DNA from: Phycisphaerae bacterium
GTDB taxonomy: Bacteria; Planctomycetota; Phycisphaerae; UBA1845; Fen-1342
Length of the DNA: 26,393 bases
Direction of reading: 5' to 3'
Assembly: GCA_050115495.1 (NCBI GenBank)
Contig: JASFQK010000054.1
Coordinates: 1 to 26,393, forward strand
The first letter of the stretch is position 1, and every line of letters starts with the position of its first letter. Position numbers and translations under genes: made by a program. Positions 1-21,777 of this stretch are shown in pieces. The notes beneath the pieces are model-generated. The model searched no databases and was not told the origin of the DNA. It saw nothing but the letters and a program-made list of their open reading frames with translations.

Positions 1-124
1 CGCGTCGTTACTCTCGTGCATCGGCGTACTCCTCTGCCCAGCGTGGGCGGCTCGGAACCAATCTTGATCCCGAGAGTACGCCGCCTTTTTTCATCCCGCC
101 ATCAACGAAATTCGGTTATAGCTC
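1..124 (-). mobile_element. IS256-family insertion sequence, left end (IRL 124..97) and transposase start (ATG at 21, MHESNDA..., runs off the window)
   Basis: Minus-strand GAGCTATAACCGAATTTCGTTGATGGCG matches the 26287-26314 terminus GAGCTATTGTCAAAAGTCGTTGATGGCG at 22/28 as an inverted repeat. GAGGAG RBS precedes the ATG at 21. The adjacent gene is cut short at this point. Confidence 0.8.
22..83 (-). promoter_or_regulatory. Inverted repeat overlapping the transposase ribosome-binding region
   Basis: CGGCGTACTC (22-31) is perfectly complementary to GAGTACGCCG (74-83). One arm covers part of the RBS and the spacer up to the ATG. Confidence 0.55.
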
Positions 125-1068
125 CGCAGGTACGGGTCCGCACGCGTCGGCTCAAATAACAGGTACTCCCACGCGTAGCCGGGCCGGATGGAGAGCGCGT
201 ATTCAGTATCCGGGTGATTCCCAAGGTACAGGTTCAGAGCACCTGAGGAGGGAAAGATCGTGAACTGACCGTCGTTTCGCTGGACCGCCAGCGCCGCCGG
301 CAGGGCCAATATCGCGAACCCGGCGGCAGCCGCCAGCGAGGCCGGCGCCACCCTTCGAAGAAAGGCCTGCCACCCAGCGGTGCGCAGGACGGCGTAGAGC
401 AGCCACGCCGTGCCTACTACGACGAATGGCAAAAACGTGGGACGCAGCAGCACGCTCGCAGCGCCGCATACCCCCACGGCCGCCCATGCCCACCAGCGTC
501 GCGGTTCGCTGCCTGTCCAGAGCATGGTCAGCACGAGCAACAGGCCGACGAGTGCCTCCAGTCCCGTGCCCAGCAGTTCGCCCTCGAAGAAGACAAGGGG
601 ACCGCACACGGCCGCCGCCACGCCTGCCACCCAGCCGCTCGCTGCCCCGAACGTGCGGCGTGCGAGCCAAGCCGTGAGAACGCAAGTCAATGCGCCCAGG
701 ATCGCCTGCACGACCTTTGCGGTCCAGATCGAGATGCCGCCGACTCGGTACACCTGAGACAAGAGATAAGGGTAGAGGAACGGCTGGAAGAAGAAGTTGG
801 GCGGCGGCGTTCCCGTTTGCGCCAAACCAGCTGCAAAGGTGTGGTAGCTCAGTGCGTCGTTGGTGGGAGCGTAGAACGTCGGATTATCAAGGCTGTCGAT
901 CAGATAAACCACACGCACAAGCAGCGCCAGGCCAAATACGGCCACGAGCATGAGACCGACGCGTCGGCGACGGCCACGCTGCTCCGGCAGATCGCCGGCA
1001 CTGCGGAAGGGCGGCGTCTCCAACGCCGGATCGTCCGGGCAATCCCGACTCGCGGAGCGTCTCGGCAT
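91..1068 (-). pseudogene. GT-C fold membrane glycosyltransferase (GT39/ArnT/PMT_2-like), 3'-truncated by IS256 at 124/125
   Basis: Multiple TM segments with motifs NDALSYH, FFQPFLYPYLL, FFEGELL, LLRPTFL and LNLYLGN. The last ~10 codons (SYNRISLMAG*) come from IS sequence. Start at ATG 1068 after GAAGGG. Confidence 0.8.
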
Positions 1069-1149
1069 GTGTCCCTTCTCCTCGCGATGACTCACCGGCG
1101 CGAGTGGTTCCGTGCACGATGCGTCGATTCGCCGGACCCGGGGGCCACG

Positions 1150-1608
1150 TTACGCCTGCACGAAGCCGTGCGCCCGCCAGACAACCAGGACGGATTCGTT
1201 CTCGATGCCGTTGAAGCCTCGCTCTGGCCGGCGTCTGTGAAGGAGCAGTTCCGTCCACTGCTCGGAAGGAAGTGGGCCGTCGATATACGTCGCCCCCGCG
1301 CTGCGCACCAAACGCTCCAGGTCGTGCTGCACCGATTCAGTGTACACGCTGACGCACATGCGGGCCGTATCCGGATCTATCGTGCGGATGAGCGACGTCA
1401 CGTTCTCGGGCGTGTGCGTGGCATCCGCAATGAGCGGCGAGTCACGGTCCAGCAACGTGCTGATCTGCCCTTCCACAGACGCCGGCATGCGCAGGAGGGC
1501 GCAGTCGGGGTTCTGCTCGATCCACTCGGCCATTTGCCTAAGCAGGGACTGGCTGGCCTGATAGAGCAACACGCGCTGATGAAACACACACGCATTCATA
1601 ACGGTCAT
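1150..1608 (-). CDS. Stand-alone atypical receiver (CheY-like) domain protein
   Basis: GGAG RBS before ATG 1608. The pattern RVLLY..SLLRQMAEWI..PLIAD..VSVYT..SAGATYIDGP parallels the receiver fold, but the acidic pair and the conserved Lys are missing. Confidence 0.55.
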   Translation of the reverse strand: MTVMNACVFHQRVLLYQASQSLLRQMAEWIEQNPDCALLRMPASVEGQISTLLDRDSPLIADATHTPENVTSLIRTIDPDTARMCVSVYTESVQHDLERLVRSAGATYIDGPLPSEQWTELLLHRRRPERGFNGIENESVLVVWRAHGFVQA

Positions 1609-2023
1609 ACTCCGCCACGATCGACGTGGCCCCGCGCTGCGCCCCGAGCCCGCGGACGGCCGTACCGCCGGCACGCCCCATTGGCGACGCGCCCGGCCGA
1701 GGGCGGCGACGCAAGCGGCCGCACGGCGCTCCCGTCGACCGACGGCGTTGTCCCGGCACGCCCGGCGGTCCTTGCTGACCCGCATCCTTCACGGTCATCA
1801 GTCTGCCACCCGCGGTCACCCGTGCACGATGTAACCGCCAGCAGCGGCGCAGCTTAGCGCGTTCGGGCAGGCAACGCGTCGCCGCCGCCGTCTTGTGGCT
1901 CTGCCTGCGGTTCCGCGTAACGCAATGCGCACCGGAGACCGCGCGGTGCGCAGCCGTCCAAGCCATCCCGGCATGTTGCGGACACTGCGCATCCTGTTCT
2001 CATCGCAACCCATTAATCCCGAC

Positions 2024-2251
2024 CTACGGCTCGCGCATCAACACGGCATCCAGTACGGCACCCGCCCCCGAATCGGCAAGGGACGCCCCCTCGGAGAACG
2101 CGGGCACACCGTTGCCGAGTGCACTGCGGTACAGGCCCGTGCGGCGTTCCAACTCGGCGTTCACGGCGGCGCGGCAGTCCACGTTGCCGGCCAGTACCGC
2201 CAGTAGCCGCAATTCCGTGTCATGAAGTGTTCGCAGACTGTGGTCGGACAT
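2024..2251 (-). CDS. Small hypothetical protein (75 aa, MSDHSLRTLHDTELRLL...)
   Basis: Helical-looking composition, GGAGTAAGG upstream, and position downstream of a sigma-54 promoter. Start is uncertain (ORF is open to 2410). Confidence 0.4.
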   Translation of the reverse strand: MSDHSLRTLHDTELRLLAVLAGNVDCRAAVNAELERRTGLYRSALGNGVPAFSEGASLADSGAGAVLDAVLMREP

Positions 2252-2405
2252 AAGCGGCTGCCTTACTCCCAGCAATCCCTGTCTCGCGTCAGCTCTCGCA
2301 CATGCGGCGGTCAAAGCCCGAAACAAAACAGCGAGTTGCGACGCCGCGCGGTCGCGCCGACGCCTCGCACCCGGACAGGCTCTGCCAAGCCACGACCATG
2401 TATCC

Positions 2406-2421
2406 TGCAAGATTCGCGCCG
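2406..2421 (-). promoter_or_regulatory. Sigma-54 (-24/-12) promoter
   Basis: CGGCGCGAATCTTGCA = GG-N10-GC with TTGCA. An IHF-like TCAA-N4-TTG lies at 2448-2458 and a palindromic motif ~100 bp upstream. Confidence 0.65.
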
Positions 2422-2520
2422 TGAGCTTGCCAACGCTCGATCTTGCGTCAACTCGTTGTGCCGGCCGCCGTTAGCTGCTCCTGCCCATGCAAACGTTTTG
2501 TTGGGGTCTTGTCAGGCGCG

Positions 2521-2538
2521 GCGCGTGGCGCGGCGCGC
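2521..2538. promoter_or_regulatory. 18-bp palindromic motif copy (candidate enhancer/UAS)
   Basis: GCGCGTGGCGCGGCGCGC, 16/18 to the 3922-3939 copy; intergenic. Confidence 0.4.
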
Positions 2539-2572
2539 GCTGCAGTTCATGACATTGTCGTTATGAATGTGC

Positions 2573-3499
2573 TCAGGTAATGCCATACCGCTGCATCTTG
2601 CGCAGAAGCGTGCCCCGATGTATTCGCAGCATTTCCGCAGCGCGCGTGCGATTGTGCTCAGTCGCTTCGAGCGCCTTCAGGATCAGTGCCCGCTCCGCGT
2701 CCCCGGGCGCCACGTCACTCAGGCAGGCCGTTCTTGGCCGAGATACGAGTGCGGACGTCGAGGTGGCCAATGCCAGGACGAGCAGTTCTGGAGCCATCCC
2801 CGTCGCGTATAGCTGTCTGACCCACACGGCCAGTTCACGCACGTTTCCCGGCCATGCATACGCCCGGAGCTGCTCGCGAACGATCCCGCCGATCCGCACG
2901 ATGGGCCGCGCGAAGCGCCGGGCGTACGTCACGAGGAAGTGATCGAGCAGAGGCAATATGTCATCGGGTCGCGCCCGCAGCGGAGGCACGTAGATATGAA
3001 CGCGGTTCAAACACTCGTATAAGTCTGTGTGAAGGGCACGCCGCTGCACATCCTCAAGCAGATCACACCTGGTCGTCACCACACAGCGCACGTCCACGCC
3101 TACCGCAGAACTTCCGCCGACCGGTGTGAGCCGCTTTTCCCGGAGCAGGTGCGCGAGCTGCAACTGCAGATCCAACGATAACTCGTTGACATTGGCAACG
3201 TACAGGGTGCCCTGGTCCGCGCAGCGTATGACGCCGAGCGTCGCGAGTTCCCGCCCGAGTAACTGCGCTGCGCCATCCGCCAGACGGAGGTCGGCGCAGT
3301 CAACCGGCACAAACGGCTGGGCAGCGCGGGGGCTTCGCTCGTGCAGGCGCCGCGCGAGCAGCTTCTTGCCGGTACCGGCATCACCCTCGAGCAGCACCGG
3401 GCAGTCGTTCCCGGCGACCTCGTCGAGCACGGTCAGCACGTTGGTCATCACCGGTGACTCGGCGACAATCTCACAGGCTTCATGAATTCCCGCCGCCAT
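2573..3499 (-). CDS. Degenerate sigma-54 enhancer-binding protein (AAA+ plus Fis-type HTH, no sensory domain), predicted catalytically inactive
   Basis: Walker A GDAGTGK, WPGNVREL and HTH NRTRAAEMLRIHRGTLLRKM are kept. The GAFTGA loop is deleted, Walker B reads LYVANV and the Arg fingers are lost (LHTDLYECL). ATG 3499 follows GGAG. Confidence 0.9.
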   Translation of the reverse strand: MAAGIHEACEIVAESPVMTNVLTVLDEVAGNDCPVLLEGDAGTGKKLLARRLHERSPRAAQPFVPVDCADLRLADGAAQLLGRELATLGVIRCADQGTLYVANVNELSLDLQLQLAHLLREKRLTPVGGSSAVGVDVRCVVTTRCDLLEDVQRRALHTDLYECLNRVHIYVPPLRARPDDILPLLDHFLVTYARRFARPIVRIGGIVREQLRAYAWPGNVRELAVWVRQLYATGMAPELLVLALATSTSALVSRPRTACLSDVAPGDAERALILKALEATEHNRTRAAEMLRIHRGTLLRKMQRYGIT

Positions 3500-3597
3500 T
3501 GCGCACTCCCGCCACTCGCCTGGTTCATCGATCTGCCGACGGGCGCGTCGCCGGCGACTGTCCGCCGCCACAGTGGCGCACCAGCCATGCCGTAGCG

Positions 3598-3615
3598 CCG
3601 CGCGGCGTCGCGCGC
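3598..3615. promoter_or_regulatory. 18-bp palindromic motif copy
   Basis: CCGCGCGGCGTCGCGCGC, 16/18 to the 3922-3939 copy. Confidence 0.35.
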
Positions 3616-3712
3616 GTTCTGGTGTGCGCCACAGGCCAGCTTTGCCCCTCTTGCCACCGATCTGTTCTCATGCACGCTTGCCCGCGTTGAGCCATGCTGC
3701 TCCTCTTGCCAC

Positions 3713-3728
3713 TGCATCATAGGCGCCG
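3713..3728 (-). promoter_or_regulatory. Candidate sigma-54 promoter for the degenerate bEBP
   Basis: CGGCGCCTATGATGCA, GG-N10-GC, imperfect match to TGGCACG-N4-TTGC. Confidence 0.4.
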
Positions 3729-3871
3729 GTTGCTCACGCCCGCAACCCGCGGTCCGAAATACGATGCAGCACACCGGTCGGGACGCCGTGGCGCATTCGG
3801 GGCACCGACACCACGCCACACACCACATAGCGTGGGCCTCCGCGGGCGTTCGCGTCCGGCACAGCACCGAG

Positions 3872-3888
3872 TGGCACGCAGCGTGCCG
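3872..3888. promoter_or_regulatory. Palindromic GG-N10-GC site readable on both strands
   Basis: TGGCACGCAGCGTGCCG, i.e. inverted repeat GGCACGC-A-GCGTGCC. Confidence 0.35.
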
Positions 3889-3915
3889 ACCGTCATAGCG
3901 AACGCGCAGGGATGT

Positions 3916-3945
3916 AGCGCCGCGCGCGGCGCCGCGCGCGGCGCT
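3916..3945. repeat. Perfect 30-bp palindrome containing the 18-bp motif (3922-3939)
   Basis: AGCGCCGCGCGCGGCGCCGCGCGCGGCGCT equals its own reverse complement. Confidence 0.85.
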
Positions 3946-4336
3946 CTGTTTGTGGCGAGCGGCGCGCTGCAGTACATGTAGCATGGTGGCGCGCACGCAC
4001 CAGTCAGGAATACGGGAGAACGAGTGTGGCGTAGTGCCATTGTATTGACTGGCGCAGGCGTGGCGGCTATTCTCACGCAGGAACACAGTGCCGGGGTCTA
4101 CCTGGTCACGCGGGCCGGCAACGACTGCAGGTGTGTATTACCAGCGGTGTATGCTATACCACAGCCGCGCAGTGACCGGTGGCATGTTGACTGATGAGAT
4201 CAGATGTTATTGATGGGTGCGGGGACAGGAAGAACCGTTGCAGGCGCGCGGGCCGGCGCAGGCCACGTTGGCGCGTGCATACACAGCATGACAAGTATAT
4301 CGAGCCTTAGCCAGTAGGCAACAGGAGAGTAGCACA

Positions 4337-5326
4337 ATGAGACAGCGTGCGCGGTCCGCGTTTACCTTGATTGAGTTGCTGGTGGTCGTGGCGATTATTG
4401 CCGTTCTGCTGTCGATTCTGCTGCCTGCTCTGGGCGGGGCGCGACGACTGGCGCAGCGTGTCCAGTGCGCCACGAGACAGAAGGGGCTGGGTATGGCGTG
4501 CGCGCTGTTTCGAGATGAGCACGACGGGTACTTCCCGATGGCCGACGATGACTCGGAGATCCATGACGGGATAGCGCTGCTGCCGTACTCCCTCCAGGAC
4601 CTTCTGCAAGGATCCACCTCGTTCCGGGATCACCGTTTGTGCTGGGTGTTCGCGCTGGATCCGTACTTCAGCGTACCGGTGACGCCACCGGGTGATGTGT
4701 GGAAGCCGACGAGCGCGCTGCAATGGCTGGAGGTCAAGCAGTGTCCGAGTTGGTCGCAACTGCCCAGCGAGCGACGGTTCGGCGATTCGACCCCGCATCC
4801 GACGCGTCTGGAAATCAACTTCACCATCGGCATGAACGCGTACTTCATGCGCGGTGATGATTTCAACAACATTCCGAATTCCGGGCACCGCGACCATGCA
4901 ACACGGACGGCGCAGCTCATCGTGGCCGAGGAGTCGGAAATCAAGTACCCGGCGCGCACGGTGTTGTTCGCGGACAAGTTCGCGTACGACATCACGGGCG
5001 CGTATCGCGATGCGGATCCCAACGTCGGTGTCCGTGACGAAGAGCCGTATGTCTTCCCGAGCATTATCGGCATCCGCCATGGGGACCGTGGAAGCAACAT
5101 CGCGTTCGTCGACGGACACGTGGAATGGGCGGTGCAGGAGACGCAGAAGTGGGTGAGCGCGGCGACGGGGGCGTCCCTGCCCATCTCGGTGTGGTACGAG
5201 GAAGTGGCCGATCCGACCTGCCGAAATGATCCGCTGATGGGCGAGGATGCCCAGGAATATACGTATCAGGAACGTGATCCACGGCAGCGTTTCATCTGGA
5301 ACTGGCAGCAGCCCTGCAACCAGTGA
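4337..5326 (+). CDS. Prepilin-type N-terminal cleavage/methylation protein with C-terminal H-X9-DG motif (DUF1559-like)
   Basis: [25 protein letters not shown] at the N-terminus, RHGDRGSNIAFVDGHVE near the C-terminus, AGGAG RBS. Confidence 0.92.
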   Translation: MRQRARSAFTLIELLVVVAIIAVLLSILLPALGGARRLAQRVQCATRQKGLGMACALFRDEHDGYFPMADDDSEIHDGIALLPYSLQDLLQGSTSFRDHRLCWVFALDPYFSVPVTPPGDVWKPTSALQWLEVKQCPSWSQLPSERRFGDSTPHPTRLEINFTIGMNAYFMRGDDFNNIPNSGHRDHATRTAQLIVAEESEIKYPARTVLFADKFAYDITGAYRDADPNVGVRDEEPYVFPSIIGIRHGDRGSNIAFVDGHVEWAVQETQKWVSAATGASLPISVWYEEVADPTCRNDPLMGEDAQEYTYQERDPRQRFIWNWQQPCNQ

Positions 5327-5386
5327 AGAACGGCGCGGGGACCGGCGGCCGCTCGCGGGCCTACGGTTCGGCGGGGAGAGCGGCGT

Positions 5387-7633
5387 CTACGGAGCGCGGT
5401 CGAGCTTCCGCAATTGTGCAGTGAGACGCTCGATGAGCTGCGTGTCACGGCGCTGCCGGGCGAGCATAAGTGCCCGCTCCGTCGCCTGGCGGGCTTCGCC
5501 GGTGGCCCGGTTCCGCAGGTGAATGTAACAGAGCTGCAGCCACAGGCGAAGGTCCTCGCGGTGCTGGAGAGCCTCCTGCGCTACGGCTGCGGCCTCGTTG
5601 TGCTTGCGTTTCATCAGCAGAAATTGCACGAGCGTCAGGGCGGCTTCCACATCTTCGGGGGCTTCGGCGTGTCGCGTGCGCAGGGCGTCCGTCGCCTCCG
5701 TCAGGATCAGATTCTGCGTGCGCGGCGTGGCGAGCGGCTGAAAGTCGAAAGCCGGGAAGCGTGCCCGCGCGGCAGGGGCGCGCTGCGGCAAGACCACCAG
5801 AAAGTACCAGCCCTCGCCGGCGTCGGCCACGTACGGCGCATCGGCGGCCCGCGGATCGCTGCGGAGCGAGGCCTGCACCCACCGTGGCCACGCGGGGTCC
5901 GTAATGCGCATCAACAGGTGTGTCGGCCCCTGCGCCCAGAGATCGACACCTTGTTTCCGGGCATGCGCCAGAGTGGCGCGTTTGCCGTGGGCGACCAGAC
6001 GCTGCGAGAGGAACGGTTGCCGGGCAACCTCCCGGTCGTTCAGTCCCAGCCGGTCCAGCGTCGGCAGTCCGCTGAAATACGGTATCGCACCGACACCATC
6101 CAGGGCGATCTGCGTATCGCGGGGTAGGCGTCCTTCCTCCACAAGCGACGCCAGGCGGAGGCCCTCGTCGCGCAAGTCGTGCAGCAGCGCGGCGTGTTCC
6201 TCCTGTCGAATGTTCGCTGCGCACGCCCGGACGTAGGCTGAACAGGCGCAATACTGCTCGCCGGCTGCCCGCAGGGGCCACCAGCGGTACAGGGGATCTT
6301 CATCCGGCCACCAGGGGGCGATCGTCCCCGCGCCGTGCAGCAGACCTCGATACCGCAGGTGCATTTGTGCGGGTAGCCACGTGATGCCCGCCGCGACGAC
6401 GAGCAGATATAGGGCCACGACGGCCTGCCGCCACCACTTGTGCCCGGAGATCAGGCAGGCCCCTTCGAAGACGAGCAGGTACAGAAGCGGGAAGTAGAGC
6501 GTCAACGGGCGAAACTCGAAGTGGTCCCCGCCAATGGAGGCGATGTAGAGCGCGTGTCCGCCGACGACGAGGAGGAGCAGGACCGGAGTGGCGGCGCGGT
6601 GCTGGCGGATGGCGTGCACGATGCCGGCGACGACCAGCGGAACCCAAAGGTAGGCGGCGTATTCCAGCGCGGCCGTGGTCAGGTATGCGCCGCCGACGGA
6701 CCACCAGGTCTGGCCGTCGACCTTCGCGTAGTACGTGTTCGGCAGCCAGTCCCCGTAGTAATACAGGCGAAAGCACGCCTGGGCGCCGACCAGCAGTGCC
6801 AGGGTACCCCCGTGGGCCAGGCAGTACCGCAAGTTGGCGCGGCGATAGACCAGGAGAACGGCGAATGCTCCGCCCGTCACCAGCAGAGCGATGAGCACGC
6901 CGTCCGGCCGGGTCAGCGAGGCCAGCGCCAGCAGCAATGCGGCGACTGGTCGGGCACCCCGTTGCGCCAGCAGGCGCTGCAACTCGACCAACTGCCGCAG
7001 CACGCCGGCCACGACCAGCAATTCGAACCAGCGCGTCTCCAGCCCGCTCGTCGCCCAGACGGCGACGCTGCGCGTGATGGCGAGCAGCCCCAGCGGGACC
7101 AACACGAGCCAGCGCGGCGCTGTGGGGGGAACGTGGTGGTATGCGTACCAGGCCAGCGCCCCCCACAGCAGAACCGTCGCCGCGATGGACAGCACGTTGG
7201 CGGTGTACTCGGGAGCGATACCGAGGGCGGCGGGTATCGACAGCAGTATCACCCACAGGAAGTTCGTGTAACCCTCCACCGGCGGCCGCCCCGGGTTGAA
7301 AACCAGGCCATGGCCATTGACGAGATTCTGCACGTAGCGAAACGAGATGTAAGCGTCATCACACATGAAGCGGTAGTACAGCACGTGAGCGAGGAGCAAC
7401 AGCAACGTTGTTGCGGCGAGGCAGTCTGCGGTTCGTCGCCAGCGCGTGCGCGGGAGCACAGGGGTCGGCTGTGCGGGGGACAGCGACTCGCTCGTAGTGA
7501 GCATTGGCGCCGCACTGGGGAGTTGCGGCAAGCGATCACACGGCGCCGCCGGCTCAGAGAGGCTGTCGCACACGCGTGGCGCACCGTCTGCTGGTTCTGG
7601 CGGTTGTTCAATCGGATTTTGCTCGTTCCACAC
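5387..7633 (-). CDS. GT-C-type membrane glycosyltransferase (arabinofuranosyltransferase-like) with TPR-like helical C-terminus
   Basis: [62 protein letters not shown] and many TM helices. Start codon uncertain. Confidence 0.8.
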
Positions 7634-7994
7634 TCATTCACCCCTCTCGCTATCCGGCGCGACTTCGCGCGATGGCCTGCCAAGCTGCCGCACGCCGTGG
7701 CATCGAATGTGCGGTCTCCTGGCCACGATCACTCGCTGCGCTGGGCGTCGAGCACAGCGTTCAGCAGCCCGCCGCAGCGCGCCTCGCCCGGGAGCGGTAG
7801 CGGGCTGTCGCGCAGCGCTGTCACGTGCCCCTTTCGCACGCCGGCTTGCGCGCCACGCCATACCGGCCCACGAAACACAGCGGCGAGCATGCGGCGTGCC
7901 ACGGCACGTTCGAGCGGGATCTGGGCCGCGGGCGAGGATCACCAGCGGTATTGCGCCGGCCGGAGCATGGCCGCGTACGACGTGCACGCAGGAC

Positions 7995-8016
7995 TGTCGC
8001 GCGCAGCGCCGCGCGC
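7995..8016. promoter_or_regulatory. 18-bp palindromic motif copy with TGTC flank
   Basis: TGTC-GCGCGCAGCGCCGCGCGC. The core is the exact reverse complement of 12194-12211. Lies in a divergent intergenic region. Confidence 0.5.
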
Positions 8017-8234
8017 TGAGACAGAGAGACTGGGTGTGGCCGGCGGCAGCAAGGAGCTTAGCGCGAATATCGTGCACTCGGCACAGGGATTTAAAGGCTC
8101 AAGGGTATTCTGCAATGTGATTGGGGACGGATGTGTCCGGGGAACTGCTTGTCACCGCACAGAGGGTTCGACTGGTGCGCTGACTCGCCGGGCCGGATCG
8201 CGAGTGCTGGGCGAGCTCCTGTGGAGGGTGCTTG

Positions 8235-9587
8235 ATGAAGACGCGGACCAGGCAGGCGGTTGTGGGTGGGATCATCCTCGCGTACGTGCTGATCGGGTGT
8301 CCCGACGAGCGAAGCGCTGTCGCCGACGAAGTCGTGCGCTTCATGACTTACAACGCGCACATGTCGGGATTCACACCACCGTACGATCTCGCGTACATGC
8401 TGAGTACGCCTGACCGGCCGGCGTTCCGCAATCTGGCGCACGTCGTGCAGACGCTGCGTCCCGACGTGCTCGCGCTTGACGAATTCGATTTCGACGAGAG
8501 CGGTACGGCGGCAGCTCTGTTCCAGGCGAATTACCTGTCGGTTAGTCAGTCCACGCCGTACACCGGGACCACCGAGCCGATTGAGTACCCGTACGTGTAC
8601 CTCGCTCCTTCGAACACGGGCATTTCGGCGGGGCATGACTTCGACAACAACGGGGTTATCGTGACCACGCCGGGCTCTGCCGGCTACGGGGACGACTGCT
8701 TCGGGTTCGGGGACTACGAAGGCGAGTACGGAATGCTCCTGCTGTCGCAGTACCCGATTCTCGATGACCAGGTGCGCACGTTCCAGTTGTTCAAGTGGAA
8801 GGACCTGCCGAATGCGGACCGTCCGCCGTGGCCGGGCGAGCCAGACCCGTATTGGTACTCGGACGCCGAATGGGATGACTTTCGCCTGTCATCGAAGAGC
8901 CACTGGGACGTCCCCATTGCCGTCGCCGGGCACGTGGTGCACGTGCTGATGTGCCATCCCACGCCGCCGGTCTTCGACGAGGACGCTCCGGACGAGACTG
9001 ACTATAACGGACGACGCAACTTCGAGGAGATTCGCTTCTGGGTGGCGTACGTGGACGGCCTGTCCGTCGCGGACGACCTGGGGCTAAGCGCGGCGTTGCC
9101 GGGAAACGCGGAGTTCGTGGTTCTCGGCGACATGAACGCCGACCCGGACAGCGATGGCCGGCCGGGCGCTTCAGAGCAGTTGACCGAGCACCCCCGGATC
9201 ATCGACCCAGCTCCTGTCGGGCTCGGCGGCGACGTAACGTATGGCGGCTGGCGTCTTGATTATGCGCTGCCGGCGGCGCACATGACCGTGCTGGGCGGTG
9301 GTGTGCTCAACGACTTCGTGGATCTCAGCAGCCCGTGGATGTATGTGTACCCGCGTCCTTCTGATCATTACCCCGTATGGGTTGACGTTCTGCTGCGCGA
9401 CCCCCACATTGAGGCTGACCTCAATGCGGATTGCGCCGTCGGCGACGACGATCTCGCTATCCTGCTGGGGGCGTGGGGCACGGATGATCCGATCGCCGAC
9501 ATCAACGGAGATCGCACGGTTGACAATGAGGACCTCGGCCTCCTGCTGAGCGCCTGGGGCAACGAGTGCGGCACAGGGGCACCGTGA
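8235..9587 (+). CDS. Secreted endonuclease/exonuclease/phosphatase (EEP) family hydrolase with C-terminal dockerin/EF-hand-like repeats
   Basis: Signal peptide; RFMTYN, PDVLALDEFD, RLSSKSHWDVP, HPTPPVFD, GDMNADP, SDHYPVWVD; tail ADLNADCAVGDDDLAILLGAWG / ADINGDRTVDNEDLGLLLSAWG. GGAGGG RBS. Confidence 0.9.
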   Translation: MKTRTRQAVVGGIILAYVLIGCPDERSAVADEVVRFMTYNAHMSGFTPPYDLAYMLSTPDRPAFRNLAHVVQTLRPDVLALDEFDFDESGTAAALFQANYLSVSQSTPYTGTTEPIEYPYVYLAPSNTGISAGHDFDNNGVIVTTPGSAGYGDDCFGFGDYEGEYGMLLLSQYPILDDQVRTFQLFKWKDLPNADRPPWPGEPDPYWYSDAEWDDFRLSSKSHWDVPIAVAGHVVHVLMCHPTPPVFDEDAPDETDYNGRRNFEEIRFWVAYVDGLSVADDLGLSAALPGNAEFVVLGDMNADPDSDGRPGASEQLTEHPRIIDPAPVGLGGDVTYGGWRLDYALPAAHMTVLGGGVLNDFVDLSSPWMYVYPRPSDHYPVWVDVLLRDPHIEADLNADCAVGDDDLAILLGAWGTDDPIADINGDRTVDNEDLGLLLSAWGNECGTGAP

Positions 9588-9817
9588 GACCAGGAGGGTG
9601 AACGGAGTGGCGACGGCGTCTGTACGAAACGCCGGATGCGCCAGGGACTCGCTCAACGAAACGAACGCAGCACACCGGCGGCTCGATGGCCTGGACACGA
9701 GGCTATATGCCCACCGGGCGACCCGAGCCTCGCGTGCCTCCTCGTGGCGAGCGACCTTGAGACGAGGGCGAGCGTACTGCAGGCGCCGATGGAAGGCGCG
9801 TACGGAACGGTGATGTC

Positions 9818-10780
9818 GTGACGGCCGAATCCTCGAACGATTTCGAGATTGTCGCCCGCTCCGGCGTGATGCGACAAGTGCTGGCATTGGTGGACGAAGT
9901 CGCGCGCAGCAATTGCTCGGTGCTCATTGAAGGTGATAGCGGGACGGGCAAGGAGCTGATCGCGCGACGCATCCACGCGCAAAGCGACCGGTGCCAGGGA
10001 CCATTTGTGCCGGTGAACTGCGCCGGAATCAGCAGCGGCGTGTTCGAGAGCCAGTTGTTCGGTCATGTCAAGGGTTCGTTTACCGGCGCCGACCAAACGA
10101 CACTGGGGCTCGTGCGCTGCGCCGATCACGGAACGCTCTTCCTCGACGAGATCGGTGAGATGGCGCTTGAGCTGCAGCCCAAACTCCTCCGTGTGATGCA
10201 GGAACGGGAGGTCATGCCGGTCGGCATGACCTCCACGTTCAAGGTCGACGTGCGCTTTGTCGTGGCGACCAACCGGAATCTGCTGAAGGAGATGCAACGC
10301 GGGGCGTTTCGAGAAGACCTGTACTATCGTCTCAACGTCGTTAGTGTCTACGTACCGCCGTTGCACGCGCGGCGCGAGGACATCGGCCCGCTGCTTGACC
10401 ATTTCCTGATCAAGTTCGCCGGCCGCTCCGGCAAGCCGGTTTGCCGGGTTAGCCAGCGCGTGCGCGATCGCCTGACACGCTACGCCTGGCCGGGAAATGT
10501 GCGGGAACTGGCCACCTGGGTGGAGCGGCTGTACGCCACGAGCATCTCACCCGAGCTGCTGACCATGGCCCTCGAGTTGCAGGGGCCGCCGCGCATTCCG
10601 GCGGCCCGCACGTCGCTCCGGAGGGATGTCGCTGCCGGCGAGGATGAGCGTGCCCTTATTCTGCGGGCCCTCGAAGCCACCGGCAACAACCATACCAGAG
10701 CGGCGGAGCTGCTTCAGATCCACCGCGGCACGCTCCTGCGCAAGATGCAGCGGTACCAGATCACGGATCCGGGGCGGTAA
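9818..10780 (+). CDS. Sigma-54 enhancer-binding protein without N-terminal sensory domain (PspF/HrpR-like architecture)
   Basis: GDSGTGKE, VNCA, ESQLFGHVKGSFTGA, LFLDEIGE, FREDLYYRL, WPGNVREL and a Fis-type HTH. Confidence 0.95.
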   Translation: MTAESSNDFEIVARSGVMRQVLALVDEVARSNCSVLIEGDSGTGKELIARRIHAQSDRCQGPFVPVNCAGISSGVFESQLFGHVKGSFTGADQTTLGLVRCADHGTLFLDEIGEMALELQPKLLRVMQEREVMPVGMTSTFKVDVRFVVATNRNLLKEMQRGAFREDLYYRLNVVSVYVPPLHARREDIGPLLDHFLIKFAGRSGKPVCRVSQRVRDRLTRYAWPGNVRELATWVERLYATSISPELLTMALELQGPPRIPAARTSLRRDVAAGEDERALILRALEATGNNHTRAAELLQIHRGTLLRKMQRYQITDPGR

Positions 10781-10869
10781 CCGCCGGCCGCGATCCTGTG
10801 CATGCCTTGGGAGCACCCCCTGACGAATGTGCCCGCCGCCGCAGCGCCCCCCGGCGTGGCCAGTGTGCT

Positions 10870-11931
10870 CTACGGAACCAGGTCGCCCCGCTCGTACTCC
10901 ATGTGACCCTCGCCGTTCAGCCACATCGCCCACAGCTTGCTGACGTCGTTGATCGTGGAACCGGATGGAGCGTACAGGGCCGGGTCTATTGCCTGCAGCA
11001 GGCGCAGGCCATCCACATGACCATCGAGGAAGGCCACATTCATTCTGCCTTGGTGCCGCAACGAAACCAGTGTGAATACCGGCGATACGCTCTTGGCGTT
11101 AGGGAACCACTCGTCGGCAAACGGCGGGGCCTCTCCACCCCCGCTGAACTCCTTGAACGCGGGCCCGCGCGAGGCCATGTTGCCCTGCGGCGTACCAACC
11201 AGCCCGGTGGTCGGGATTGTCGTCGTGTAGTCGAAGTAAGTATCCCCGTAGCGGGGGTCGAAGTAACGAGCGCCCTCGAATGCGTACACCTTGCGGGCCG
11301 GTGTGCCGGCGAATTCGAACATCGGCCGGTACGCATCCGGCACGCTGATACCCTGCATCCCTGGAACGTCCATCGGTTTGTTGGTGTCCTGGGGATCGGG
11401 GGGGCCGTGCGAACCGCTTGGATATAGATGGAAGTACGCGGGCAGTATGTAGCTCAGTGTGAGAGGGTGCTTGCGCTCATTCAGCCACATCGGCAGATCC
11501 GGTCCCTGGTACTTGCCGCCGTACCGCAGGTTGTTGTCAGGACAGGATAGCGCGCTCATGCAGATGTCCTGGAAGCGTGTGAGGCGGTCGCCCGAGAAGC
11601 CACGAACCTCGCCGAGCACAGGCGAGACCCAGTCCCAGCGCGTGCACGGGCGCGTCGCGCCCCAGGCATTATCGTCGGCCAGTCCCAGACCGGTGGTGTT
11701 CGGACCTGCGAACCAGCCGTTCTCTTCTGTCGTGTAGTTGGTGGCGGCCTGTGCCAGACCACGCAGATGGGCTGCGCACTTGACAGCTCTCGCGGCCTTG
11801 CGCGCGTGCTGCAGCGACGGCAACAGAATGGACAGCAGCACAGCGATGATCGCGATTACGACAAGCAGCTCCACCAACGTGAACGCACGTGGGCCGTAAC
11901 CGGAACGAATACTCCAGCCGTGTTTTATCAT
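10870..11931 (-). CDS. Prepilin-type N-terminal cleavage/methylation protein with H-X9-DG motif (DUF1559-like)
   Basis: [25 protein letters not shown] at the N-terminus; [16 protein letters not shown] near the C-terminus. Confidence 0.92.
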
Positions 11932-11943
11932 GATGCGCTCTCA

Positions 11944-11959
11944 TGCATGGGACGTGCCA
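11944..11959 (-). promoter_or_regulatory. Sigma-54 (-24/-12) promoter
   Basis: TGGCACGTCCCATGCA, one mismatch from TGGCACG-N4-TTGCA. Confidence 0.7.
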
Positions 11960-12193
11960 TTGTCACGTTCTGTTCATAGCCAGTATTGCACTGTGTCCGC
12001 ACGCTGGTGCCGGAATGATGGTGTGCGCGCTGTAACCGCGGCAACAAGCAACACCCACGATTATTACGCAGTGTAGTCGGCAGCGCGAGAATAGCGAGTG
12101 AAGTTTGCGCAAAGCGCTCGGCGAGGATGGCGCATGCGATTAGCTGTTCAAGAAGGCAGTACGATCTGTATGCAACTGCCGCCTTGCGCTGCG

Positions 12194-12215
12194 GCGCGCG
12201 GCGCTGCGCGCAACA
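12194..12215. promoter_or_regulatory. 18-bp palindromic motif copy with AACA flank
   Basis: GCGCGCGGCGCTGCGCGC-AACA, ~235 bp upstream of the 11944-11959 promoter. Confidence 0.5.
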
Positions 12216-12530
12216 CCGGCAGTGACGCATGTTGTAAGTCGCGTATCACCTCGCGTGCTCGTATGCGCGCGAGTGGCCCCCGTCCCTACTGAATGCCGCG
12301 ATCGCTGTGTTGGGCGAGGGTCTGCGGATTGCATGCCGCGCGGTCGAATCGGCTGAGATAGGCCGAAACAGGGTGCTGCGCAGCGATCGCCTGCTGGTGC
12401 CGGGCGTTGCCGTGCGATGCATGCCTAAGCAGCATGGGCTTTGGGTGACCGCGGCCACGTGATGGATGTGCGCCACCCTGAGGCGCTCAGACACACGACG
12501 CCGGCCCAAGGCTCCTGCTGCCCGCATCGC

Positions 12531-12553
12531 TGCGCGGAGCGCTCCGCGCAACA
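12531..12553. repeat. Perfect 20-bp palindrome (motif variant) with ACA flank
   Basis: TGCGCGGAGCGCTCCGCGCA, extended by CCGCAT/ATGCGG arms (12522-12558). Confidence 0.7.
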
Positions 12554-12704
12554 TGCGGAGGACGGCGCGACGTCCCGACGCTCCACCTGGGGCGGATGGG
12601 GTGAGCGGCATTCCCGTTGACGTTCGACTCGCTGCACTGCGACGTGACCGTGCGGCGGTGGGAGCAGTCCACGGGGCGGAAGGCGGAACAGGCTTCCACC
12701 TCGC

Positions 12705-13193
12705 TTATGAGGCGTCAGGACAGTCGTCGCGACGGGGTACCAGCGAATCTTTGATGAGCACATCGCACAAGGCGTCGTACATGTCCTGCACAAGACCGGG
12801 CACCTTGTCTTTCTCGAACCGCTTCGCAATGGTGCTAGCGGGCGCGAGCACGACTTGATCACCCTCGCACGGCGGTTCCACAGCCAACCCGATGAACGGG
12901 CCATCGGCATCCTCAACAGCGTGCCACGCCAGCTTGAACTCCTTCGCCAGCGCGTCACCGAGCGCCACGCCGGCCATGTCGATTATCTCATCCTGGCTGA
13001 ACGCGTCCCGGTTCCTGGCCACGTGCCACCAGGCAATCAGCCCGTCTGCAATCTCCATGGCACTGATGTCGGCTTCCGGGGGCCAGCGCACTGGACCAGA
13101 TTCGGCCGCGCTCCGTAGGCTATCCCGTACACGTCGGAGCCACAGCGTTTGCTCGCTGTTCAGGGCGGTCACTCGAACCGTTTGTTCGTCCAC
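12705..13193 (-). CDS. DUF3806-like protein
   Basis: GVALGDALAKEFKLAWHAVEDADG..GLA..VLAPASTIAKR pattern; GAGGAAGG before the GTG. Confidence 0.7.
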   Translation of the reverse strand: MDEQTVRVTALNSEQTLWLRRVRDSLRSAAESGPVRWPPEADISAMEIADGLIAWWHVARNRDAFSQDEIIDMAGVALGDALAKEFKLAWHAVEDADGPFIGLAVEPPCEGDQVVLAPASTIAKRFEKDKVPGLVQDMYDALCDVLIKDSLVPRRDDCPDAS

Positions 13194-17707: not shown

Positions 17708-19815
17708 CTACGGGCTGCTCAGCAACTGGATGAACGGGCTGATGTCGAAATTGTTGACGAGGCCATCGCCGGTGAGGTCGCCGAGGGCTGCGTTGCAGTT
17801 CGGGTAGCGCTCGGCGTAGGCCTCGGGGTCGGTGATCGCCAGGACGAAGGCGCGGATGTCGAAGTTGTCGATGGCGCCGTCGCAATTGAGGTCGCCGAAG
17901 ACGTAGGAGCCGAACTCGTCGGCGCCCATGTCGACGATGGCGACGTCGTCTTCATCGCCATCCCAGACACGGTACTCGCCATCGAGGTCTGCGTCGCCGG
18001 GCGAGGGGACGAACGCGGGGTCGCCGGCGTCGATGCAGGGCGAATCGGGGGAAAGGTGGAAGTCGTCGTTTTCGGGATCGACGAAGAGCGGGTCTTCGTC
18101 GATGTTGCCGGCGCCGCTCCAGCCGTCTTCGAAATCGCTGAAGGTTACGTAGAGATCGCTACCGCCGGCGAGCTTGGCAGGCGTCTCGCCGTTGTCCCAG
18201 ATGATGCAGTTGTTCAGCGTCGGCTGACTGGCCCAGCAGTCGATGCCGGCGCTGTTGCTGCTGGTCGTGACATTGGAGGCGACCGTGCAATTGGCCAAGA
18301 CGGGCGCGCTGTTTTCGCAGTCGATAATGCCCCCATGTTCGGCGGAATTGGCGGCAATCGTGCAATTGGTCAACACCGCATCGCTGTCCGAGCATCTGAC
18401 AGCGCCCCCATACACGGCGGAATTGGAGGCGATCATGCAGTTGATGAAGACCGGATTACACTGCGAGCTGTCGATGCCCCCCCCCTCGTAGCGGAATTCC
18501 AGGTGATCGTGCAGTTGCTGAAGGTGGCGACGCAAGACCAGAGATCGGCGCCGCCGCCGGAGCTCCCTGCAGAGTTGCCGGTGATCGTGCAGTTGCTGAG
18601 CGCGAGTGTGGTGTTCGGGGAGCCGAGGACCCCGCCGGAGGTGGCGCCTGTGTTCTCCGAGATCGTGCAGTCGATGAGCGTGGCACTGCCTGCACTGAAG
18701 GTGGCTCCGCCAGCGCCCTCGGTACCGGAGTTCCGCGTGATCACGCAACGGGTCAGCAGGGAAGTGGACGAGCCCGGGCAAGTGATCCCGCCGTTGTGAG
18801 CCGCCGTATTCTCCGAGATCGTGCAGTCGGTCAGTGTCGAGTTGCTGGCATAGGCGTAGATTCCCCCGCCAGTGTACTCGGCCGAGTTCCCGTTGATCGT
18901 GCAGTCGGCCAACGTGATGGTGCAGTCGCGGCACCACACGCCACCACCTTCGCGGGTTGACGAATTCGCTACAACCGTCGAGCCCGTCAGCGTCGCGGTC
19001 CCTCCCTCGCAGTAGAGGCCGCCACCGGCCGAAACGTAGCTTTGCTCGGTCACTGCGTTCTCGGTGAACGCGCAGTCAGTGAACGTCGGGTTACTCTCTG
19101 TGGAGTAGAAGCCGCCGCCGCAGTAGCCGGCCTTGTTCTCGCTGAAGGCGCAGTCGATCGAGAGCGGACTGCCGTCGACGCAGTACATCCCGCCGCCGCA
19201 ACTGGGCGCCGAATTGGCGGTGAACGTGCAGTTGAGCAGCGTAGGGCCTCCGTGATGGCAGGCGAGGCCGCCGCCGTCGTCGCGTGCGACATTCTCGCTG
19301 ATCGTGCAGTCGGTCAACGTGGGTGAACTGTGCGTGCAGTAGACGCCGCCGCCGTCGTTGGCCGCGTTTCCGGTGATCACGCAGTGCCTCAGTGCCGGGC
19401 TGCTTCCGTCACAGCAGATCCCGCCGCCGCCGGTCGTCGGGCCGTCGGGGACGACGTAGCCGTTCGTAATCGTCAGGCCGGCGACAATGCTGTCCGAGCC
19501 TTCGGCGCTGTGGAAGTGGAAGCCGCGGCCAGCACCGTGACAGTCGATGATGGTCGTGGCCACGATGTCGGGATCGGTCGGGTCGATGCTGCGGACGGTG
19601 ATGGCCTTGCCGGCGAAGTCGAGGTCGCGGTTGCCGGGGCCGGTGTACGTGCCGACGGCGATGACGACCTCGTCGCCGGGTTGGGCGGCGTCGATGGCGG
19701 CCTGGATGGTGGCGTACACGCCGGGCACGTGGAGTTCCTCAGCCCACGCCGCGGGCAGAATCAAAGCACAGACAGCAATGGCCGCCAGGGTCCGCCTACT
19801 GAGCAGTTTCGACAT
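17708..19815 (-). pseudogene. Secreted right-handed beta-helix repeat protein with dockerin-like C-terminus, frameshifted at a G9 tract (18477-18485)
   Basis: Signal peptide, TIQAAIDAA, repeated DCTISEN.A..GGG units in two overlapping frames, and tail GDLNCDGAIDNFDI. One added G gives a continuous 702-aa ORF. Confidence 0.85.
19625..19773. repeat. 149-bp exact direct repeat (second copy 21288-21436)
   Basis: Base-by-base identity between the 5' regions of the two tandem beta-helix genes. Confidence 0.9.
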
Positions 19816-19927
19816 AATACTCCCCTTTGAAGTACGCAATCAGACAACGAGGCAAACACGCATAGCACGTTCCGCGGCGTGGGGTCCGGCACGGACGCGG
19901 ACGCCACGCCCGAGACAGTCGACTGGA

Positions 19928-21478
19928 TCATCCTCCCGCCAACAGGGCGAGGAACGGACTGATATCGAAGTTGTTGACGAGGCCGTCGCCGGTGAGGTCG
20001 CCGAGGGCCGCGTTGCAGTTCGGGTAGCGCTCGGCGTAGGTGTCGGGATTCGTGATCGCCAGGACGAAGGCACGGATGTCGAAGTTGTTGATGGCGCCGT
20101 CGCAGGTTACGTCGCCGAGGACGTAGGAGCCGAACTCGTCGGCGCCCATGTCGACGATGGCGACGCCGTCTTCATCGCCGTCCCAGAGGCGGTATTGGCC
20201 GTCCATATCGCTCACGCCGGGCGAGGGGACGAACGTGGGGGCGCCGGCGTCGATGCAGGGCGAATCGGGGGAGAGGTGGAAGTCGCCGTTTTCACGGTCG
20301 ACGAAGAGCGGGTCTTCGTCAATGTTGCCGGTGCCGACCCAGCCGTCCTGGATATCGCTGTACGTCCCCATCACGCAGGCCGCGCGGTAGAGCGCATAAG
20401 TGCTGTTCTGCCAAACGATGCAGTTGTGCAGGGTCGTGTTGCCACTGATGCAATGCACAGCGCCACCGTTCTCGCTGGCGGTGTTCTCGGTGATGGTGCA
20501 GTGGGTGAGGGTGAGGGAGCCGTCTTGGCAGTAGAAGCCGCCGCCGTAGTGCGCTGTGTTCCCCGAGATCGTGCAGTCCGTTAGCGTCATGACGCCTTCG
20601 TAGATGCAGGCGACACCGCCGCCGGTAACGCCGTCGTTGCCGGAGATGGAGCAGTTGCTAACGTCCAGCGCTCCGCCGTAGGTGGTGATTCCTGCACCCC
20701 ACAACCGGCACTCGTTGTTGTTGATCGTGCAATCACGCACGACTGCCCAATTGTCGCCGGACGCAGCGATGCCGGCGCCCCAGGCGGACTCGTTCGCCGT
20801 GATCGTGCAGTTGGCGATGGTCGGGTTGGCCGTGCCACAGTGTATCCCACCGCCACCCCGTGCCACTCCGTCGTACAGCACGGAGTTCTGCCTGATCACG
20901 CAGTCGATGATGAGGGGGCTGCCGCTGCCGCAGTGGATCCCTCCGCCGGAAGCTGCCTCCGTCGTGTTGCCGCTGATGTAGCACGCACTGACCGTCGGGC
21001 AGCCAGCCTCGCAACGGATCCCGCCGCCGTAGCCGAGCGCGGTGTTCTGGTCGATGTGGCACTTCGTGATAATCGGACTGCCGGTGTCGCAGAGGATGCC
21101 GCCGCCGTTGCCCTCGACGTAACCGTTCATGATCGTCAGGCCGGCGAGGACGCTATCGGGCCCTTCGTTATTCTGGAAGCGGAAGCCGCGGCCGGCGGCT
21201 TCGCAGTCGATGACGGTGGTGGCCACGATGTCGGGGTCGTTCGGGTCGGTGCTGCGGACGGTGATGGCTTTGCCGGCGAAGTCGAGATCGCGGTTGCCGG
21301 GGCCGGTGTACGTGCCGACGGCGATGACGACCTCGTCGCCGGGTTGGGCGGCGTCGATGGCGGCCTGGATGGTGGCGTACACGCCGGGCACGTGGAGTTC
21401 CTCAGCCCACGCCGCGGGCAGAATCAAAGCACAGACGACAACCGACGCCAGAATCCGCGTATTCAGCACTTTCGACAT
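19928..21478 (-). CDS. Secreted right-handed beta-helix repeat protein with dockerin-like C-terminus
   Basis: MSKVLNTR signal peptide, GGGIxC/CTIxxN repeats, GNIDEDPLF..LSPDSPCIDAG..VDMGADEF and GDVTCDGAINNFDI. Confidence 0.9.
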   Translation of the reverse strand: MSKVLNTRILASVVVCALILPAAWAEELHVPGVYATIQAAIDAAQPGDEVVIAVGTYTGPGNRDLDFAGKAITVRSTDPNDPDIVATTVIDCEAAGRGFRFQNNEGPDSVLAGLTIMNGYVEGNGGGILCDTGSPIITKCHIDQNTALGYGGGIRCEAGCPTVSACYISGNTTEAASGGGIHCGSGSPLIIDCVIRQNSVLYDGVARGGGGIHCGTANPTIANCTITANESAWGAGIAASGDNWAVVRDCTINNNECRLWGAGITTYGGALDVSNCSISGNDGVTGGGVACIYEGVMTLTDCTISGNTAHYGGGFYCQDGSLTLTHCTITENTASENGGAVHCISGNTTLHNCIVWQNSTYALYRAACVMGTYSDIQDGWVGTGNIDEDPLFVDRENGDFHLSPDSPCIDAGAPTFVPSPGVSDMDGQYRLWDGDEDGVAIVDMGADEFGSYVLGDVTCDGAINNFDIRAFVLAITNPDTYAERYPNCNAALGDLTGDGLVNNFDISPFLALLAGG

Positions 21479-21777
21479 GATGATCACCTGTGAAGAGAGA
21501 GGGGCAAAGGGGCCGAGGAACAGAGGGGCAGAGGGGCGCAGGGCGACGGCGGATTGCGCAATTCCTGCTTGCGGTGGCTGAGCACGTGGAGCCCCATCGT
21601 CCCTCACCCTGACCCTCGCCGGCGACCGAGAAGACGCTCGGACCGGCCCAGTTCATACAACGTATTGTACCGCCGACGCGGGGTGGAAGGCAATGGGGGA
21701 AGAAGGAAGACAGGAGTCAGGAGTCAGAAGGTTGCGGGGACGGGCGCACGTTGGCAGCGCCGCGTTGTTGACGCTCT

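Follow-up and report, generated by a model that had tools for sequence, protein, structure and literature searches.

The 26,393-nt contig JASFQK010000054.1 of a Phycisphaerae bacterium (assembly GCA_050115495.1), hereafter the window, carries two paralogous genes for sensor-less AAA+-HTH proteins of the sigma-54 activator type, one of which is complete in all its motifs, while the other has lost the residues of catalysis and of sigma-54 contact and still shares the recognition helix of its twin. Judged by the pattern of its changes, this dead copy is a real, selected pseudo-ATPase twin for which random decay is rejected, and we find it somewhat probable that it acts as a dominant-negative brake on the live copy at predicted shared enhancer boxes. 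The two genes are the following:

2573 to 3499, minus strand: dead paralogue, an AAA+-HTH pseudo-ATPase of 308 residues (open reading frame (ORF) call, alignment, profiles, structure model)
9818 to 10780, plus strand: live copy, an intact sensor-less sigma-54 activator of 320 residues (ORF call; motifs GSFTGA, LFLDE and FREDLYYRL)

Both ORFs are free of interruptions at these coordinates, lie 6.3 kb apart on opposite strands, and encode products that are 53% identical in pairwise alignment. PF00158 (220.7 bits in the live copy), the AAA lid and HTH_8 have been found in both by profile search, a sensor family in neither. The live copy shows all that characterizes a sigma-54 activator, i.e., Walker A (GxxGxGKE), the switch Asn, a GAFTGA-type loop, the Walker B DE pair, RxDxxxR and sensor II. 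In the dead copy, the changes of which are given here in live-copy numbering, an in-frame 8-residue deletion covers GSFTGA, Walker B reads AN and the arginine fingers have become His and Cys; by its sequence it is a homologue of the sigma-54 activators, non-functional as a member. The alignment has revealed the substitutions E46K, N67D, D110A/E111N, K122Q, R125H, Q128R, N152R, R165H and R171C, among which N152R changes sensor I and E46K the activator-specific acid that follows the lysine of an otherwise intact GxxGTGK Walker A. Sensor II and the recognition helix are unchanged, with WPGNVREL and IHRGTLLRKMQRY retained. An earlier note on this DNA, made from the sequence alone, had described two paralogous AAA+-HTH proteins without sensory domain, a full activator motif set in 9818-10780, and in the dead copy the 8-residue loop deletion together with the loss of Walker B, of the switch Asn (to Asp) and of both arginine fingers; profiles and alignment have borne out all of this. 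Its further statement that Walker A, sensor II and the recognition region are kept holds for the latter two and for GxxGTGK, but not for the Walker A acid.

Regarding catalysis, PspF residue numbers equal live-copy numbers minus 3 across all motifs, and the dead-copy changes D110A and R165H are identical substitutions to PspF D107A and R162H. For these mutants, Vmax values of 0.23 and 0.08 per min have been reported, compared with 39.5 for the unmutated reference, and hexamers are still formed by mutants of the R-hand (R162/D164/R168) (PMC3419264); activation is mostly abolished in GAFTGA mutants (PMC7175178). By analogy with these mutants, the dead copy very likely lacks both ATP hydrolysis and sigma-54 contact, and it may still be able to assemble into rings. 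Its predicted fold is that of a normal AAA+-HTH protein (pLDDT 83); the confidence is low only around the deleted loop, in the linker and at the N-terminus, and a structure comparison places NtrX first, ahead of other activator structures.

The two copies are sisters in the tree (support 99/96; 36 rows, picked from the 74 of a quick tree that agrees on the sister pair), with branch lengths of 1.09 for the dead and 0.33 for the live copy. Using two outgroup pairs, the codon model has given ratios of nonsynonymous to synonymous rates (dN/dS) of 0.134 and 0.120 for the dead branch, where dN/dS = 1 is rejected (p = 6e-4 and 1.5e-4), and of 0.045 and 0.042 for the live branch. The pattern of damage is a stronger test of selection than the branch dN/dS. 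There are 114 columns on which at least 90% of 51 intact relatives agree; 104 of them are retained by the live and 79 by the dead copy, and the changes of the latter affect 13 of 17 catalytic or sigma-54 columns compared with 17 of 92 others (Fisher p = 6e-6, deleted columns excluded), with all 13 HTH and 17 of 20 lid columns being kept. In a neutral-decay simulation without indels, none of 3000 runs reached the observed catalytic skew, and 12% remained stop-free. The recognition stretch is identical between the copies at 13 of 13 positions, of which the other 51 rows share 7-11, and the HTH dN/dS is 0.021. Gene conversion as the origin of the identical helix has been rejected, as 20 HTH codons differ synonymously and 9 by amino acid, which argues against a recent event. 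As read from these columns, the catalytic residues of the dead copy have drifted for long while fold and DNA binding have stayed constrained. The earlier suggestion of a selected pseudo-ATPase is thereby supported by the branch dN/dS (0.12-0.13 and not near 1, in a check proposed along with it), by the catalytic skew of the damage and by the retention of the HTH.

An assembly error is argued against by a Logan contig of run X1, which is identical over 1000-12500 with zero differing letters or gaps, X1 being possibly the source sample and so no independent isolate. The genome encodes 14 activator-like ORFs and rpoN, and the live copy appears to be the sole family member in it that would be able to contact sigma-54. 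An activator of a different family elsewhere in the same genome (G000:C24:78042-79112) has intact motifs and only 77 residues before Walker A, and is probably sensor-less as well.

Of 400 class genomes, 56 have proved to contain members in a scan with the family profile, 64 copies in all once two weak matches had been dropped; only five candidates were scored per genome, and the same scan recovered the dead copy in its own genome (G000). Within the window's own taxonomic family, 22 genomes were sampled and gave no member; 278 order genomes gave none with a family-level score, three matches of about 365-370 bits there being too low, and 400 phylum genomes likewise gave none. All 51 copies examined (of the 64; from 43 genomes) keep the loop, the DE pair and both arginines, and three have Ser at the switch position; among 542 AAA domains compared, only the dead copy has lost all four motifs. 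No orthologue of the dead copy has been found by a word-indexed protein search, in which the best non-self match is the live copy (52%), then come matches of 41-46%, all 11 intact, nor by an unfiltered search of representatives, where close relatives could sit under one 50% representative, nor in 40 relatives, in the 278 order genomes or the 400 phylum genomes, among the 51 examined family copies of the 400 class genomes or among the matches listed in a metagenome scan. Because no such orthologue has been found, the live/dead pair is best described as a lineage-specific duplication and not as a conserved planctomycete switch. This lack of orthologues is one of the two outcomes that the earlier note had named together as refuting its reading; the other, a dN/dS near 1, has not been observed.

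The family activators belong to a conserved and apparently undescribed cassette, which is composed of an activator, tandem 17-bp boxes, a sigma-54 promoter, one or more small proteins and a stand-alone atypical receiver. Its activator position is taken in the window by the dead copy, which is followed by all further parts, and none of them lie downstream of the live copy:

2519 to 2554, no strand: two predicted enhancer boxes (2519-2535 and 2538-2554) with a 19-bp period, degenerate relative to the 17-bp palindrome (family model)
2406 to 2421, minus strand: predicted cassette sigma-54 promoter, 170 nt upstream of the small ORF and positionally conserved (rank 1 of 888)
2024 to 2251, minus strand: small ORF of 75 residues, homologue of the cassette small protein with the motif ELxLxxxL...AELxRR (sequence comparison)
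1150 to 1608, minus strand: stand-alone atypical receiver-fold protein, single copy in the genome (structure model, profile, synteny)

Of 51 related loci, 39 have a receiver-fold gene on the strand of the activator and no more than 2.6 kb downstream of it; of the 12 without it, 3 reach to within 100 nt of the end of their contig. Members of the receiver-like family have been detected in 56 of the 400 class genomes, and 53 of these 56 have the activator too, with kin among them not being independent. Eight other genomes contain two copies of the activator, each with two intact activators and two receiver-like genes, compared with two copies and one receiver here. The fold is CheY-like (beta/alpha)5 (model pLDDT 83), with CpaE (nearest) and CheY as best structural matches; the profile matches the FleR receiver (E = 2.8e-4), and the family has no Pfam match above cut-off. 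The phosphorylation site of 1150-1608 is incomplete, as Asp62 is kept and both the acidic pair after beta1 and the Lys after beta5 are missing; the Asp, which 25 of 37 rows lack, is shared by the window protein with the 11 rows closest to it. The small protein, present at 9 of the 51 related loci, has given no usable Atlas match. A second conserved small protein of about 60-70 residues is encoded downstream of the activators at 8 loci (L118, L122, L124, L126, L128, L131, L132, L134), with no match among this genome's ORFs of at least 60 residues, and ends at all 8 in Ala-Ala, which we take to resemble ssrA-type degradation tags. From their position under the predicted promoter, it may be guessed that the receiver-like and small proteins exert feedback control on the activator. 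The absence of the cassette from near kin suggests its acquisition from another order. A loss of the sensor domain through frameshift has been rejected: the open frames of the two genes extend by at most 56 and 19 codons, and upstream of either copy no remnants of the cassette receiver or the small protein have been found.

Across the family loci, a -24/-12 promoter is located ~100-140 nt before the first cassette gene (the matrix derives from 21 of these sites), and this promoter is in turn preceded by a predicted family box, the 17-bp palindrome YGYCGCA-N3-TGCGRCR. This box has 96 sites in 36 of 39 regions, at a median of 138 bp upstream of the promoter and with a 22-bp period in 28 of 60 gaps; its 108 matches compare with 2.5 in shuffles, for a model trained on these same regions. 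For the ranking of this genome, box and promoter models have been trained on other genomes and 888 sigma-54 candidates scored, scores of at least 14 being reached by 0.16% of random windows. The best predicted boxes lie 100-260 bp upstream of -24/-12 promoters. The context expected for a sigma-54 activator, rpoN and predicted promoters with upstream boxes, is given for the live copy. Autoregulation of the family activators has been dropped, as no consistent promoter or box precedes the family genes. A 26-bp GC motif derived from five window sites, whose best outside match is C14:6447, has been replaced by the family-trained 17-bp model; none of its 22 non-coding matches off the contig has a sigma-54 site 40-260 bp away. 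At L128 (G124:C98), four near-identical sigma-54 promoter motifs spaced by 235-320 bp have been observed between the activator and the receiver-like gene.

Further predicted sites and target genes in the window are:

10870 to 11931, minus strand: prepilin-type gene (DUF1559 / H-X9-DG) and predicted target, in convergent orientation to the live copy (profiles, promoter ranking)
11944 to 11959, minus strand: predicted promoter of the sigma-54 type; the prepilin gene starts 28 nt downstream of it (rank 3 of 888)
12177 to 12215, no strand: tandem predicted enhancer boxes (12177-12193 and 12199-12215) with a 22-bp period (family model)
7886 to 7901, minus strand: sigma-54 promoter candidate with a score of 14.0, preceding the membrane glycosyltransferase-like gene 5387-7633 (rank 327 of 888)
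3918 to 3943, no strand: GC-rich palindrome between the dead gene and a divergent prepilin-type gene at 4337-5326, possible further site (sequence)

By their profiles, the candidate targets are surface or envelope genes; the genome has 43 DUF1559-type paralogues. Near 3918-3943 there are only weak sigma-54 candidates, at 3873-3888 on the minus strand (rank 68 of 888) and at 4180-4195 on the plus strand (rank 382 of 888), and in the interval between 2573-3499 and 4337-5326 a palindrome at 3872-3888 reads as a -24/-12 candidate on both strands. Outside the window, the candidate C14:6930 ranks 8 of 888 (score 21.4), and this region is possibly a second regulon locus.

Taking these results together, the following mechanism is proposed. 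The duplicate at 2573-3499 has lost the motifs for hydrolysis and sigma-54 contact, with its fold and recognition helix held under selection. To judge from the motifs, the live copy alone would open the predicted promoters: 2421 before the small ORF and the receiver-like gene, 11959 before the prepilin gene, and perhaps C14:6930. Because its helix is identical, the dead copy would bind the same boxes, where it could only block, either by occupancy or by joining mixed rings. In such a ring, each dead subunit would disable two sites, its own and that of its neighbour, since it has lost the catalytic residues that act in cis as well as those that act in trans. The threshold for expressing surface-protein genes would then depend on the ratio of the two proteins, in a family that is without sensors. 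The shared enhancers that the earlier note had proposed are consistent with the identical helix and with the family-type predicted boxes at top-ranked promoters, while the helper role offered there as an option is disfavoured. A more specific version, in which the dominant-negative twin arose inside a split cassette whose activator drives its own trans-acting regulators, and in which the ancestral copy became an inhibitor that binds DNA and poisons the rings of the new copy, is held only tentatively and is rather doubtful as a whole.

Several observations weigh against the brake. The difference in dN/dS between the dead and the live branch is non-significant (p = 0.24-0.27), dS is near saturation, so that its apportioning between the branches is loose, and a very recent loss of function may be compatible with a branch-average dN/dS. 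The 2421 promoter is weak (score 8.4, the weakest of 40 scored), its boxes 2519/2538 are spaced by 19 bp compared with the modal 22, and they are degenerate, with single-box scores of 7-10 where unrelated window positions reach up to 12.5; the allowed spacing of 18-23 was set after the data had been seen. Six loci with a window-like receiver, five of them also with a window-like small protein, fit the tandem model poorly (-6.4 to 7.6), and so does the GC box 7995-8020, which together with the low rank of the 7901 promoter makes regulon membership of this site uncertain; the rank of the 3888 promoter is likewise modest. Finally, the dead copy is known from one genome, and the stability of the arrangement across lineages is unsupported by orthologues.

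Among the alternatives, an independent atypical regulator of the VpsR, NtrX or Caulobacter NtrC type, which would act at sigma-70 promoters irrespective of the live copy, is unlikely. There is precedent for it, since VpsR, without GAFTGA and with a Walker B of ND, activates sigma-70 promoters and NtrX represses (PMC6158489), and Caulobacter NtrC carries an eight-residue L1 deletion (bioRxiv 10.1101/2023.06.06.543975); NtrX is also the best structural match of the dead-copy model, and of three sigma-70-like sites within 1-13000 two lie directly upstream of divergent genes. This count is, however, near chance (3 vs 1.6 +/- 1.4), the described atypical regulators have their own sensor domain, and the helix identity together with the position of the best boxes upstream of -24/-12 promoters implies that both proteins would meet at the same sites.

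Next in order, and unlikely too, the dead copy could be a helper subunit, serving as DNA anchor, in ring nucleation or in the docking of the receiver or small protein, with the mixed ring as the regulated active form in the manner of HrpRS and FleQ/FleT. Its location within the ancestral cassette beside the sole receiver-like gene would fit such a role; paralogous activators with similar helices, VnfA1 and VnfA3, co-activate shared promoters (PMC9542535), and PspF rings with alternating Walker B mutant subunits stay active (PMC4132715). On the other side, GAFTGA-type loops are strictly required in both HrpR and HrpS (PMC3105312), cis/trans complementation of the PspF type is ruled out for a copy that is defective in cis and in trans (PMC3419264), and the live copy, with its 104 conserved columns and every catalytic motif, has no matching degeneration. 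Least probable is a pseudogene that decays after its function moved to the new copy, as which the dead copy might appear from its lack of orthologues, its long branch, a G+C content at third codon positions slightly below that of the live copy (0.75 vs 0.80) and the weakest cassette promoter of those scored, but its frame is open with the in-frame loop deletion as sole internal indel, its damage is concentrated on catalytic motifs with the HTH fully kept in a pattern that neutral simulations never reproduced, and the adjoining receiver-like gene keeps 16 of 22 subclade-conserved columns.

The dominant-negative twin can be placed among known systems as follows. VpsR (V. cholerae), NtrX (B. abortus), TyrR and HupR (PMC6158489) as well as Caulobacter NtrC (bioRxiv 10.1101/2023.06.06.543975) have, like the dead copy, lost GAFTGA and kept the HTH for DNA binding, and in VpsR Walker B is degenerate as well (PMC6158489). 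In these accounts, however, VpsR, NtrX and NtrC possess a receiver domain and act alone, unlike the sensor-less dead copy, and for none of them is an intact activator twin of identical helix described there. Beyond their losses, the dead copy lacks the arginine fingers, the switch Asn and sensor I, and its scores against the models of NtrX (153, cut-off 600) and TyrR (138, cut-off 576) remain low. HrpR/HrpS of Pseudomonas syringae are sensor-less AAA+-HTH paralogues from one duplication, as is the present pair, with trans control by small proteins and one copy partly degenerate; they are encoded in tandem, co-dependent, and both keep and need the GAFTGA-type loop, whereas here one copy is dead, the other complete and the distance large (PMC3105312). 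In Rhodobacter sphaeroides, the two sensor-less activators FleQ and FleT act at the same promoters, but FleT is without DNA-binding domain and co-activates, whereas the HTH is the best-kept part of the dead copy and catalysis is lost (PMC7277832, PMC7175178). VnfA1/VnfA2/VnfA3 of Azotobacter vinelandii have similar recognition helices, share promoters and have been suggested to undergo negative control by hetero-oligomers, but are described as activators with GAF sensor domains (PMC9542535); RedR1/2 are a further paralogue pair (PMC9542535, PMC7277832). The PrsR / PEP-CTERM box system resembles the predictions made here by a sigma-54 promoter and an upstream box before surface-protein genes, and differs by a fused receiver, a cognate kinase and another box (PMC1569441). 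The C14:6930 candidate target ends in a VPEP motif, a likeness to that system, but identity with PrsR has been rejected, as TIGR02915 scores the live and dead copies at 283.8 and 175.9 bits compared with a cut-off of 502.6. The Planctomycetota parts of a cross-phylum sigma-54 survey make no mention of the cassette (PMC12316311), and within the literature covered, to which subscription journals largely and supplements entirely do not belong, there is neither a dead twin with the same helix that antagonizes its paralogue nor an account of the cassette. GAFTGA-less regulators and paralogue pairs are already known; apparently new is a dead twin that shares the live copy's helix, in one genome.

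Off-switching of sensor-less sigma-54 activators is known in few cases and proceeds via unrelated inhibitor proteins (PspA, HrpV). If the proposed brake is real, such activators would here be switched off by a different route, through a dead paralogue of equal DNA specificity, and the mixed-ring experiments so far done with engineered PspF mutants would have a natural counterpart; the significance is limited by an occurrence in one genome only. A single 12-kb stretch contains the pair together with two predicted promoters and the boxes of both, which makes the mechanism directly testable, and the cassette in 56 genomes offers a regulatory module that experiments can address in a lineage whose gene regulation has hardly been described.

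A few further observations have been made alongside. In P0122, P0123, P0124 and P0133, two or three activator AAA+ modules follow one another within one chain; these are fused live/dead combinations, some of their modules being degenerate in the loop, Walker B or arginine fingers. The C14 candidate is situated in a 2.4-kb intergenic region (L006:5000-7425, G000:C14) with GC boxes, between a dockerin-like gene and the VPEP-ending gene, and an endonuclease-dockerin paralogue and a TPR membrane gene nearby echo the window. At L006:9691-11939, two adjacent radical-SAM-like genes presumably resemble the pair of the His-Xaa-Ser system. The palindrome 12528-12553 has been dropped as an enhancer, as it belongs to a REP-like 18-bp GC palindrome in five copies (here and at C1:20428, C11:59470, C22:4114 and C67:10620). 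A beta-helix/dockerin-like gene at 17708-19839 appears to be split over the overlapping frames 17708-18937 and 18433-19839, a probable frameshift, and its neighbours 19928-21607 and 24785-26299 are intact.

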